This document shows, in pieces, positions 7,718 through 29,440 of a stretch of 31,423 nt of DNA. The notes beneath the pieces were generated by a model. The model searched no databases and was not told where the DNA came from. It worked only from the letters and a program-made list of their open reading frames with translations. A program made the translations under genes and the position numbers. Numbering within the stretch: position 1 is the first letter of the stretch; each line of letters opens with the position of its first letter. Source of the stretch: a virus (Duplodnaviria > Heunggongvirae > Uroviricota > Caudoviricetes); IMG/VR virus record IMGVR_UViG_2974574029_000001, positions 1 through 31,423 of that record; one strand, written 5' to 3'.

Positions 7718-8914
7718 TTATTTTCCTTCAATAAGCTTAATATCTTCAGCGTAGTTGACCTGGAAGTCTGCCATAATTTTCATTATGATAGGCTTTGCCT
7801 TCAACAAACGTGCAGGAAGCTTGTCACGGTTGCTCGCGGTGGTCAACAAAGCCTTACCAAACGCATTTTCCTTAATGAACGACAGGAAGATAGAGCTTAC
7901 GAAGTCTCGGTTCTGGTCCATAAAGTGGTCGTAAAGATACTGAAGGAAGTTTCCAGAGAATTCAATAATCTGATCATCGGTGTAGTTGGTATCTGCAATA
8001 GCCTTACGCAACCAAATAGCACCTTCGGAACCTAAAATCCACAAACTATCGGATGGAAGGTCTCCAGGGTCTTGGGCAGTACCGTTCATAACATCTTCGA
8101 TCGGAACCATATTACGAAGTTTAGTGTGGTATGCCCACAGTTCAGCCATTAAAGGTGTGCCAATGAAGCCCTGAAGAGCCACTTTAGCTAGGTTGGCAGG
8201 CAGCAAATTAGCATCGTAATCGTACAATACATCACTGGCGTAAGTTAAAGTACGCGGTGTGGCGAAAGAAGGACACCCGATATCCAGCATTTCTTCATAG
8301 TTTTCAATAGCACTGTTCTTACGAGACAGAAAACCAATGATTGACGAATGAATACCGTTCTGCATGGCATAGTCTTCGATGAACACCGATGCGCTATAGG
8401 TAAGCTCTACCAGCATCATACGGTTAGCCAAAGGGGCTTCCAGTGCAGTCACGGCAGTACCATCCCCAGCACGGTTACCCGCAGCAACCAGTACAGCCCC
8501 TTCAGGGAACTGGTAGGTCCCGATTCGACGGTCCAGCATGATTTGGAATGCCAGTTTCTGAAGGTAAGGCTCGGCGTGGAGAAGCTCGTCAAGGAACACA
8601 ATACCTTTCCAGTTAGGATCACGAGGCCAGAAATCCGGCAAGGCGTACACTGTGCGAGTAACACCATTGTCATCGGTGTATGGAATCTGCACCCCGGTGA
8701 GGTCGGTGTTATCTTTATCAGCCAAGCGGAAGTCTACCAGGTTGTCACCAGGCCCGAAAAGAGAATCCGCAATTTGCTTCACAGCCTGACTTTTACCAAT
8801 ACCTGCCCCACCGAAGATCATCAGTGAACGTTTGTGACGCTGGCAAAATTGTACCAGTGGTGGAAGATCACGCAAAGTGATCCAGTTGCCAGAAAAGATG
8901 TTGCGACTTGACAT
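7718..8914 (-). CDS. MoxR-like AAA+ ATPase
   Basis: Walker A GGAGIGKS, Walker B IVFLDE, AAGNR, EAPLANRM, ATPRT; AGGAG SD before MSSRNIF. Confidence 0.9.
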   Translation of the reverse strand: MSSRNIFSGNWITLRDLPPLVQFCQRHKRSLMIFGGAGIGKSQAVKQIADSLFGPGDNLVDFRLADKDNTDLTGVQIPYTDDNGVTRTVYALPDFWPRDPNWKGIVFLDELLHAEPYLQKLAFQIMLDRRIGTYQFPEGAVLVAAGNRAGDGTAVTALEAPLANRMMLVELTYSASVFIEDYAMQNGIHSSIIGFLSRKNSAIENYEEMLDIGCPSFATPRTLTYASDVLYDYDANLLPANLAKVALQGFIGTPLMAELWAYHTKLRNMVPIEDVMNGTAQDPGDLPSDSLWILGSEGAIWLRKAIADTNYTDDQIIEFSGNFLQYLYDHFMDQNRDFVSSIFLSFIKENAFGKALLTTASNRDKLPARLLKAKPIIMKIMADFQVNYAEDIKLIEGK

Positions 8915-8945
8915 TATTTGTCTCCTGTAAATGAAATTCGGGAAA

Positions 8946-8974
8946 AGGATACATTTCCTCCTCCCCCATTGCAA
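8946..8974 (-). promoter_or_regulatory. sigma70 promoter for the AAA gene
   Basis: TTGCAA-N17-TATCCT with TG extension. Confidence 0.65.
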
Positions 8975-19510: not shown

Positions 19511-19558
19511 AATGAGAAGCATTCTTATTTAGTTATTTGAATGATAATCATTCTCATT
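19511..19558. promoter_or_regulatory. Two Fur-box-like palindromes
   Basis: AATGAGAAGCATTCTTATT (19511) and AATGATAATCATTCTCATT (19540); core 13/14 to TGATAATnATTATCA. Confidence 0.65.
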
Positions 19559-26560: not shown

Positions 26561-26730
26561 ATGTCAAATATCCGCTACAATATCAAAAGCACTTCAAAAA
26601 CCGGTTATGTGTCTTATGTTCGCCAGGGGTCTACAATGCTTGGGCCTTTGAAGAATGTGTAAAAATTGTTACTACGCTTTCAGGTGATGATCGCTATATG
26701 GGCGTTTTATTTGAGATTGAATTAGCTTAA
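26561..26730 (+). CDS. Early protein of ~56 aa with an apparent -1 indel in the G run at 26626-26629
   Basis: AAGGTAAA SD; MSNIRYNIKSTSKTGYVSYVRQG joins VYNAWAFEECVKIVTTLSGDDRYMGVLFEIELA if one G is added. Confidence 0.55.
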
Positions 26731-26755
26731 TTAGCAAAATAACATCGGGGCGCTA

Positions 26756-26784
26756 TTGCAGCGCCCTTTTTCGTCTGTTATTCT
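26756..26784 (+). promoter_or_regulatory. Early promoter embedded in a terminator
   Basis: TTGCAG-N17-TATTCT inside GGGCGCT-ATTGC-AGCGCCC followed by a T run. Confidence 0.75.
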
Positions 26785-26815
26785 TTTACCTCCCTCATTA
26801 AACGAGTAATACCAA

Positions 26816-27079
26816 ATGACAAACATGATTTACATTGTAAGCAAAACAAGCCTTTTACGCGCTACCCTGCTGGCTTGCCTTATTGCTTTAGTGTCTAATA
26901 CGTGTTTTAACTGGCTGGCCTGTCTGGTAACGACTGAGACAACGGCGCAAGGGTTTAACACCATGATCGACGTTTTACAATTGACGTTTTACACCCTGAT
27001 TAAACTTAATCGCTTTAATCGTTTAGACCGTTATGATCTCCCTTTCTTGATCGCTGGCCTGCTGGCTATCGCGCTGTAA
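26816..27079 (+). CDS. Early membrane protein (2-3 TM segments)
   Basis: Hydrophobic segments; followed by a terminator. Confidence 0.65.
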   Translation: MTNMIYIVSKTSLLRATLLACLIALVSNTCFNWLACLVTTETTAQGFNTMIDVLQLTFYTLIKLNRFNRLDRYDLPFLIAGLLAIAL

Positions 27080-27104
27080 GGCTCCACTACTCCCCAAAAA
27101 TAAT

Positions 27105-27125
27105 GCCGGGCAACTCCCGGCTTTT
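27105..27125 (+). terminator. Intrinsic terminator ending the early block
   Basis: GCCGGG-CAACT-CCCGGC-TTTT. Confidence 0.75.
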
Positions 27126-27361
27126 GTGTTTTTATATGTTAGGTTTTATCAATCAATAATCAAAAAGTGATAGGTGACTAAAACCTGCATAATCGAGATC
27201 TCCAGGCGGTAACCCACTAGCCAGGGCAAGGGATAAAGTCCCTCAGAATGGCGCATATTGCGCTTAAAAGGGTATGGCCCTACCTAACAACCCCCACAAT
27301 TAATAACGCATGTTATTAACTGAATAAAATATGCATTTTTACGCATTATGTATGCATAGCG

Positions 27362-28103
27362 TGAGAATCACTCTCAAATGATAACTTTTATCATCTAATC
27401 TATTGTGTGAACTGGTTTTATTGAGCATAACTATACACTTTTCAAGTGTTTTAACATCCTGTTAAAATCGCCTTGCGATACTAAAATAAAATCTTGTCAA
27501 ATAAAAATCGTTCGCGTAATCGTGGGGAGTGGCGCGAGCGTAGCGAGCGACACAATAACACGAGAGTAACTCAAATGCGAACAAATCGCATTCTCGTTCG
27601 CGTTATCGTGGCTCGTTAGCGCCTAAGAGCGAATGAAAATTGTTATCATTAAGATCATTACATCCGTAATGATTAGCAAACTTATTTTATCACATCGCCA
27701 CGATAACACCGATCACGCTCTGCGTGATCGCTCTCGTGTTATTGTGTCGCTGGTGATAGTAAACCCGTGTTATTATATGCGATCAAATCGCATTAAATCG
27801 TGAATAATGGTTGACAAACCAGAATTATTGATAATGAAAACATGTTGTTTTTGAGCATAGTTTGCCTGAAGTGTCAATATAAATTTATCATAGAGAATAG
27901 CTATCAATCCCTTGCGTAGCAAGGGTTGATGGGAATGATTATCATTGCGGAAATGCTCAAAATTGTATGGTGTGTTAGTGTATTGCTAAACACGATTCTC
28001 TCTCCTTGTCAAGCTTTTATTTATAAATTTACAAAATATTTATATTTACGGAATGATTCTCATTTCGAAATTGAATTCGAAATCGAAATAATAATGATTC
28101 TCA
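27362..28103. promoter_or_regulatory. Cluster of seven Fur-box-like 7-1-7 sequences
   Basis: Sites start at 27362, 27379, 27634, 27892, 27930, 28048 and 28089 (see findings). Confidence 0.6.
27546..27751. other. 206-nt multibranch secondary-structure element (ncRNA or ssDNA structure)
   Basis: Perfect 21-bp inverted repeat 27546-27566/27731-27751 enclosing an 11-bp stem and four hairpins. Confidence 0.8.
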
Positions 28104-28135
28104 TTCGTCATCTCATTCACAAAACAACCCTGAAA

Positions 28136-28153
28136 GATGAATAATCACACATG
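28136..28153 (+). promoter_or_regulatory. ARG-box-like sequence (ArgR)
   Basis: GATGAATAATCACACATG fits TGAAT-N4-A(T/C)NCA; ~108 bp before the XerC arm. Confidence 0.45.
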
Positions 28154-28261
28154 AAACTATCACCATGATAACAGTCACACCATGTAATGACCTGAAGCGG
28201 CTGGCCTATGTGTCACACTGGTAACATTGGGGCATTATTAGTCTGCTATGTATTGTTAGCC

Positions 28262-28289
28262 AGTGCGTATAACGTGTTTTATGTTAAAT
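28262..28289 (+). other. XerC/XerD dif-like recombination site
   Basis: AGTGCGTATAA-CGTGTT-TTATGTTAAAT; XerD arm 11/11 and XerC arm 9/11 identical to E. coli dif (GGTGCGCATAA-TGTATA-TTATGTTAAAT). Confidence 0.85.
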
Positions 28290-28663
28290 GGTGTAATTCA
28301 TATAAATATAAGCTTGTCAAGAGTAAATCGTGCTGTAAGCTGGCAAACCATAAGCTTGCTATCTGACACACCCAATTATTATTAGTTTCGGCAAGTAACT
28401 ATCATGCCTGAAGAGGCCCCGAGGAACCGGGAACCGGATCGACCTTGCCCATGATATTTTGTAAAGATCCGTAAAGATAGTTGACGCCAGGAGCTGTCCG
28501 TCTAGCACCGCAGATGGTGCGAATACAATATTTTTTACCCAAGGACCAAGCCATGATATTTTTCGGCAAGTGATATTTTCGGCAGGGGGTCTGTTTTGAT
28601 TTCCCCACGGGGGGAAGGGGTGGTTATACGGGGAAAACAGGGGCCTGTTTACGCGATATATTT

Positions 28664-28782
28664 ACCCGTGTACGGGTTAGCCTCTGGCTAATCGCCCAAG
28701 GCGATATATTTATAGCACCGGAGGTTTTTGCCTTTGGCAAAGTGCTTCGCACCGTAATGTTTATGGCATCGACACGTTACGG
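28664..28782. repeat. Second chain of back-to-back short palindromes
   Basis: ACCCGT-GT-ACGGGT; TTAGCC-TCT-GGCTAA; ATCGCC-CAA-GGCGAT; TTTGCC-TTT-GGCAAA; GTGC-TTC-GCAC; CCGTAA...TTACGG. Confidence 0.85.
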
Positions 28783-28971
28783 CAATGTGTTTATGAAATG
28801 GAGTTTTATCGACATATCGGGGAGACCCTTCATATTATGTGTGTTAATGGGATGTGCAACCTTTCACGCAGGGGTGGTGATTGTATCCTCCCGCTTCAGG
28901 AGATTTGGCGTATAATGACTATATCAGGGCTGACTGTTTACGTCAAGGAAAATTGATGCGCCACTTTAGAT

Positions 28972-28998
28972 AAAAGAAAAGGAGCCTCTTCAGGCTCC
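28972..28998 (-). terminator. Intrinsic terminator for the leftward genes
   Basis: Minus strand GGAGCC-TGAAGA-GGCTCC-TTTTCTTTT. Confidence 0.8.
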
Positions 28999-29011
28999 CT
29001 TGTTGTGTGGG

Positions 29012-29440
29012 TCAGATATTCTTGACTGCGATCAGGTTTGGGACATACGTGCATGTTGAGGAGTACGGGGTGTCCTTCCTGCGAAGCTGTGTCTTGCACA
29101 GAGAAGCATGTGATTGTGTGTCCACAGGCCCTCGGTCATAGAACGGATATCCGCTGCACATGTACGGGCGATCCTCGTATATTGAGCACTTGTTGTCTTT
29201 CAGCTTTGTGCAGGTAAAGTAGCTGGTGAAGTGTTTTGTTCCTTTACCAACCTCTTCACGACCTGTAACAACAAGAGGATTCCGTTTGTAGGCCTCATCC
29301 CTGGAGATTGGTTTCATCATCTCCCCGTGGATAGCCGATACTCTTCCGGTCCTGACCTTTTCGTGAAATTCTTCGTGCGTGATGTTATCTATGGCGATAA
29401 CTTCACAACAGGCACTGCAATTATGGCAATGTTTTATCAT
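29012..29440 (-). CDS. YkgJ-family zinc/iron-chelating cysteine-cluster protein
   Basis: CHNCSACC...CTKLKDNKCSIYEDRPYMCSGYPF. Confidence 0.8.
   Translation of the reverse strand: MIKHCHNCSACCEVIAIDNITHEEFHEKVRTGRVSAIHGEMMKPISRDEAYKRNPLVVTGREEVGKGTKHFTSYFTCTKLKDNKCSIYEDRPYMCSGYPFYDRGPVDTQSHASLCKTQLRRKDTPYSSTCTYVPNLIAVKNI

Follow-up and report, generated by a model that had tools for sequence, protein, structure and literature searches.

We report a dif-like site in the terminal repeat of a virulent Vequintavirinae phage. The site is a near-perfect match to the chromosomal sequence recombined by the host XerC/XerD recombinases, and its conservation across seven lineages of the subfamily suggests that these phages may rely on host XerCD to cyclise or monomerise their genomes. 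The narrower proposition, that the sequence is a selected XerC/XerD-binding site, is likely; the cyclisation mechanism is inferred from sequence alone, without experimental evidence for binding or recombination, and is put forward tentatively. Known exploitation of host Xer recombination is limited to plasmids, chromids and small integrating elements, and in the literature searched we found no paper linking Xer or dif with Vequintavirinae or with the terminal repeats of lytic phages. The publications on phages KPP-1 and Jab report the repeats, but not the site.

Materials and methods

The sequence analyzed here (the window) comprises 31,423 bp, corresponding to bases 1-31423 of a 145,759-bp virus record (IMGVR_UViG_2974574029_000001). 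Its nearest relatives are Klebsiella, Proteus and Escherichia phages of the genus Mydovirus, subfamily Vequintavirinae (rV5-like virulent myoviruses), and Klebsiella is the probable host genus inferred from these relatives. The window was searched with the dif arms as pattern, allowing a free 6-bp spacer and up to 3 mismatches, and the search was repeated on 100 dinucleotide shuffles. Reference dif sequences were extracted from 120 bacterial species genomes. The distribution of the site among phages was assessed with a short blastn query and compared with that of a subfamily marker, the MoxR-type ATPase encoded at 7718-8974. Conservation was examined in Mydovirus loci and in a nine-genome alignment, and the genome was searched for Phage_integrase, DUF3653 and FtsK_gamma domains, KOPS and Chi motifs, and cumulative GC skew, and the gap around the site for Pfam, PHROG and Rfam families. 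Integrated or episomal forms were sought by searching 25 kb of the window against 72,556 plasmids (PLSDB) and the repeat region of phage HdK5 against 5,426 complete E. coli genomes.

Results

A dif-type site in the intergenic region

The site lies in a gap of about 1.9 kb between a rightward gene block, whose last family-supported gene is at 26816-27079, and a leftward gene block, whose last gene is at 29012-29440. The features identified in and around this gap are as follows:
27105-27121 (+), terminator-like hairpin ending the rightward gene block
27989-28502 (no strand assigned), inferred 514-bp direct terminal repeat of the virion DNA, present as a single collapsed copy in this assembly
28048-28062 (+), Fur-box-like 7-1-7 palindrome on the XerC side, 214 bp from the arm
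28089-28103 (+), second Fur-box-like 7-1-7 palindrome, 173 bp from the XerC arm
28136-28153 (+), ARG-box-like 18-mer, judged not significant
28262-28272 (+), XerC-binding arm, AGTGCGTATAA
28273-28278 (+), 6-bp central region (spacer), CGTGTT
28279-28289 (+), XerD-binding arm, TTATGTTAAAT
28453-28470 (+), conserved block GATATTTTGTAAAGATCC near the right border of the repeat
28978-29001 (-), terminator-like hairpin ending the leftward gene block

The 28-mer AGTGCGTATAA-CGTGTT-TTATGTTAAAT is the only match in the window under the search criteria, and 0 of 100 shuffles gave any match. Compared with E. coli dif (GGTGCGCATAA-TGTATA-TTATGTTAAAT), the XerD arm is identical at 11/11 positions and the XerC arm at 9/11, as stated in the first-pass annotation. 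Compared with the dif site of K. pneumoniae ATCC 13883 (AGTGCGCATAA-TGTATA-TTATGTTAAAT), the XerC arm matches at 10/11 positions, so that 21 of 22 arm bases are shared. The flanks of the phage site are unrelated to those of host dif (7/40 and 11/40 identities), indicating that it is not a recently captured host fragment.

No coding or RNA family explains the site. The small ORFs inside the gap have no PHROG or Pfam family; the ORF at 28208-28366 exists only in some Mydoviruses, and no reading frame remains open over the site across genera. No Rfam family matches 26700-29300 at E values up to 1.

The site lies within the direct terminal repeat

The first-pass annotation proposed that virion DNA would carry two direct copies of the site if this zone lay in a terminal repeat, and by homology this condition holds. 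Klebsiella phage DP is deposited with an identical 514-bp repeat_region at both ends, and for phage KPP-1 about two-fold read coverage over 116,316-116,829 (MT438396) and a 514-bp direct terminal repeat confirmed with PhageTerm have been reported, with T7-type packaging (PMC9862379). Both repeats align end to end with 27989-28502, at 95.7% and 94.2% identity. The site occupies positions 274-301 of 514 in DP, KPP-1 and this window, 289-316 of 519 in Erwinia phage Hena1, and 263-290 of an exact 459-bp repeat in E. coli phage HdK5. The two copies would therefore lie in direct orientation about 270 bp from the left end and about 210 bp from the right end of the virion DNA.

The borders of the repeat (27986-27993 and 28494-28507) are conserved across genera and are probably the terminase cutting signals. 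On the left, the repeat begins with AACAC, preceded by TAA in this window, and the DP and Hena1 repeats also start with AACAC. On the right, TTGTCCGTC at the repeat end, followed by TAGCA beyond the border, is shared by DP, KPP-1 (repeat end only), KP12 and Hena1, with the KP12 record and the Hena1 repeat ending at the same homologous base, while HdK5 has TCGTCCGCC.

Conservation across Vequintavirinae

All 12 Mydovirus loci carry the 28-mer, with one change in one phage. The site is also present in Seunavirus (FENT2, EspYZU15, LNA4), Vequintavirus (HdK5), Certrevirus (CR3, PcCB7V), Henunavirus (Hena1), Avunavirus (18-1-2) and the unclassified Serratia phage ChuuTotoro. The XerD arm is invariant in all 22 phage loci examined, whereas the XerC arm varies only at positions 1 (A/G), 7 (C/T) and 8 (A/T), and four of these lineages match the E. 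coli arms at 22/22 positions. Their flanks cannot be aligned with the window: in the nine-genome alignment the 28-mer is the one solid block, and the best local alignment between the Hena1 repeat and the window is the site itself (a 27-mer). Position 1 of the XerC arm is A in K. pneumoniae and its Mydoviruses and G in E. coli and its Vequintaviruses, but this is confounded with phage genus, and host genera are themselves mixed, so that it provides only a hint of host covariation.

Within Mydovirus, the repeat is much less variable (17% of columns) than its left flank (mostly 40-75%), and the only 28-bp window between 28140 and 28440 with at most one variable column starts exactly at 28262. The blastn query found the site in 286 phage records and the marker ATPase was found in 235, with nearly the same host-name tallies (Klebsiella 30 and 30, Cronobacter 15 and 15, Enterobacter 7 and 7, Erwinia 6 and 6), indicating that the site is close to universal in the subfamily. 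Sixteen to eighteen of the records are named 'Campylobacter phage' (about 135-141 kb, one a 75.6-kb partial record); they carry the rV5-type dif site and their ATPase matches at the same identity (about 53%) as those of E. coli Vequintaviruses. Their host labels look doubtful. Aeromonas phage 4L372D and Pseudaeromonas phage KLEP7, used as outgroups, show no XerC-plus-XerD pair with the enterobacterial XerD arm at up to 2 mismatches, although this says little because the dif of their hosts was not established. Phage 4L372D does contain three identical copies, at about 9.7, 10.4 and 134.2 kb, of an element of at least 68 bp that includes TTATGTTAAAT but no XerC arm; two of the copies are inverted, 680 bp apart.

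The spacer differs from that of host sites

Among the 120 bacterial sites sampled, 93 have the spacer TGTATA and none has a phage-type spacer. The phage spacers are CGTGTT, CGTGTA, GGTGTA and TGGGTA; they are always 6 bp long, always carry G at position 4, where the host has A, and always have a further mismatch in the XerC-side half. Strand exchange by tyrosine recombinases requires spacer homology between partners (PMC5357621), and this pattern should therefore hinder complete exchange with chromosomal dif. T7-type packaging copies both repeat copies from one template, so their spacers are always identical to each other. This supports the self-by-self recombination argued for in the first-pass annotation, but it remains an inference.

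The ARG box and the cer-like designation are not supported

The first-pass annotation described the site as cer-like on the basis of an ARG-box-like 18-mer upstream of the XerC arm. This element matches only 11 of 16 specified positions in a working version of the ARG consensus, a level equalled or exceeded by 382 matches in the window on both strands, including 13/16 matches in the same gap, and it is alignable only in Mydovirus and Seunavirus. This part of the observation is hence no more than chance. Moreover, cer is a 30-bp core with an 8-bp central region plus about 180-200 bp of accessory sequence (PMC5357621, PMC11724359), whereas the site reported here is a 28-bp dif-type site.

Absence of phage-encoded recombination functions and of integrated forms

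The first-pass annotation noted that no integrase is present in the window, and this extends to the whole genome, which has no Phage_integrase (PF00589) match at E values up to 1. Any recombination at the site must therefore use host enzymes. No DUF3653 (the XafT-type Xer activator) or FtsK_gamma domain was found in the genome either. The genome contains 6 KOPS, 3 of them in the permissive orientation, with no polarity toward the site, although these are too few to judge. The only KOPS motif near the site (GGGNAGGG, 28612-28619, +) lies 110 bp outside the repeat on the XerD side and points away from the site. The 3 Chi copies show no useful polarity, and cumulative GC skew follows gene orientation only. 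No match was found to 25 kb of the window in PLSDB, or to the HdK5 repeat region in complete E. coli genomes, and within these searches we see no trace of lysogeny, carriage as a plasmid or integration at dif.

Discussion

We tentatively propose that host XerCD binds the two direct copies of the site on the injected linear genome, synapses them and exchanges strands, yielding a circle with one copy of the repeat and a repeat-length linear by-product; the same reaction on head-to-tail multimers would give monomer circles. The main argument for cyclisation over mere multimer resolution is position. To be present twice per virion the site must lie in the repeat, which is 0.35% of the genome, and it has stayed there in three genera with recorded ends. 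The variation observed also follows Xer-site rules, with an invariant XerD arm, three variable positions in the XerC arm and three of six in the spacer. The weak point of the model is activation. Complete XerCD recombination at 28-bp dif-type sites is FtsK-dependent in the cases tested (PMC11724359), and FtsK sits at the septum. Possible activators are FtsK itself, an unknown phage factor, or a route without FtsK in which XerC-made Holliday junctions, formed inside fully homologous repeat DNA, could migrate away and be cut by a resolvase. In addition, T7-type phages with terminal repeats are not known to need circles, a 514-bp repeat could recombine homologously without Xer, and monomerising concatemers would work against packaging.

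The closest functional parallel appears to be phage P1, in which Cre acting at loxP in terminally redundant DNA probably forms a circle independently of RecA (Hochman et al. 1983; Sternberg et al. 1986). P1, however, is temperate and encodes its own recombinase, whereas here no phage recombinase was found and the site mimics that of the host. With respect to chromosomal dif of Enterobacterales, the site shares the 11 + 6 + 11 organization but lies in a phage terminal repeat rather than a replication terminus. Large enterobacterial plasmids such as R27 likewise carry 28-bp sites without recognisable accessory sequences on replicons above 115 kb and rely on host XerCD (PMC11724359), but the carrier here is a virulent phage that is not inherited by daughter cells, and the site is duplicated at the ends of a linear molecule. 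ColE1 cer and pSC101 psi are also host-Xer sites borrowed by foreign replicons, acting with PepA plus ArgR or ArcA; the sites described here lie 145 kb apart on an initially linear molecule. IMEX elements (CTXphi, VGJphi, TLCphi; PMC5357621) similarly combine a dif-like site with the lack of an integrase, but they are small filamentous phages or satellites that integrate at dif.

Several alternatives can be considered, all of which we regard as less likely. The site could serve only for FtsK-controlled multimer resolution on circular or concatemeric replication intermediates, its place in the repeat being a historical accident. Its 28-bp length, the lack of recognisable accessory sequence on a large replicon and the single copy per genome unit agree with this view, but a lytic phage with T7-type packaging needs concatemers rather than monomers and does not segregate to daughter cells, and the persistence of the site within the repeat in three genera is left unexplained. 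It is also conceivable, though unlikely, that XerCD binds without recombining, the site acting as a protein handle to bridge or protect the genome ends or to place phage DNA near the septum or nucleoid, or as a sink for host XerCD. Arm conservation shows selection for binding only, the spacer is the least constrained part, and Fur-like boxes share the repeat; yet spacer positions 2, 4 and 5 are invariant and spacer length is constant, which matters for catalysis rather than for binding, and we know of no precedent.

The cer/psi-like model of the first-pass annotation, with accessory sequences bound by ArgR (or ArcA) and PepA restricting recombination to copies on one molecule without FtsK, appears improbable. 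The XerC-side flank inside the repeat (262-288 bp in three genera) exceeds the 180-200 bp required, the stretch 28005-28110 is highly conserved within the genus, and psi is also 28 bp, so that accessory-dependent control cannot be excluded. Nothing positive supports ArgR, however. Accessory-sequence control relies on slithering of supercoiled DNA and is expected to be inefficient over about 100 kb (PMC11724359), an entering linear genome is not supercoiled, and in Vequintavirus the conserved boxes lie on the XerD side. Integration at host dif, leading to a hidden lysogenic or carrier state, is very unlikely. A dif-like site on a phage with no integrase is the IMEX signature, and spacer positions 2-3 next to the XerC arm match the host in most genera, but the spacer mismatches the host in both halves, no integrated or plasmid forms were found in the collections searched, and KPP-1 is reported as strictly lytic (PMC9862379). 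Equally remote is the possibility of an Xer-unrelated packaging, replication or transcription signal. The site does lie among other conserved repeat motifs (the border motifs, TTGTCAAG and GATATTTTGTAAAGATCC) that presumably serve the phage's own machinery, but 22/22 arm identity to dif in four lineages with exactly 6-bp spacing cannot be coincidence, and the variable positions are those that also vary among bacterial dif sites.

A dif mimic kept across large, strictly lytic phages, several of them studied as candidates for phage therapy or biocontrol (KPP-1, PMC9862379), would add a new host dependency, pointing to xerC and xerD as possible resistance loci, and would offer an answer to how genomes with short terminal repeats become replication-competent.

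Other conserved elements and related sites

Fur-box-like 7-1-7 palindromes (TGAKAAT-N-ATTMTCA) cluster in the gene-free zone (27362-28103) and in one other intergenic region (19513-19556). At least one, and up to six, lie inside the terminal repeat in every genus. The two boxes listed above match at 11/14 (28048-28062) and 13/14 (28089-28103) positions. They are found on the XerC side at about -214 and -173 in Mydovirus and Seunavirus and at -231 and -190 in Hena1, with the 41-bp spacing between them kept in Mydovirus, Seunavirus and Henunavirus; a box abuts the XerC arm in CR3, and in HdK5 they lie on the XerD side. Next to the Fur-like boxes, the first gene to the right of the repeat (29012-29440, -) encodes a 142-aa protein with a CxxCxxCC putative Zn/Fe-chelating domain (PF03692, E 3.7e-7). 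A highly speculative and improbable reading is that these boxes act as the architectural or regulatory partner of XerCD in place of ArgR/ArcA/PepA, in which case genome cyclisation, and so the infection outcome, would be gated by the host's iron status.

The motif TTGTCAAG, whose reverse complement holds TTGACA, occurs once near the left border of the repeat (28006-28013) and once 25 bp after the XerD arm (28314-28321). The left-hand copy aligns in all genera compared except Avunavirus and the second in about five of the nine genomes (degenerate, GTCAAK), but no well-spaced -10 was found. The block GATATTTTGTAAAGATCC, about 35 bp inside the right border, is alignable in Mydovirus, Seunavirus, Henunavirus and Avunavirus, partly in Certrevirus, and absent in HdK5, with at most 1 variable column per 28-bp window within Mydovirus; further GATATTTT copies lie just outside the repeat (28540-28600).

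Other large phage contigs, an IMG/VR contig of 154,976 bp and another contig of 261,806 bp, carry two or three dif-like sites, in direct and inverted orientation, beside arrays of TGTGGATAA (DnaA-box-like) repeats. In the 154,976-bp contig the first site is 276 bp from the contig end. This is a different lineage from Vequintavirinae with a similar habit.
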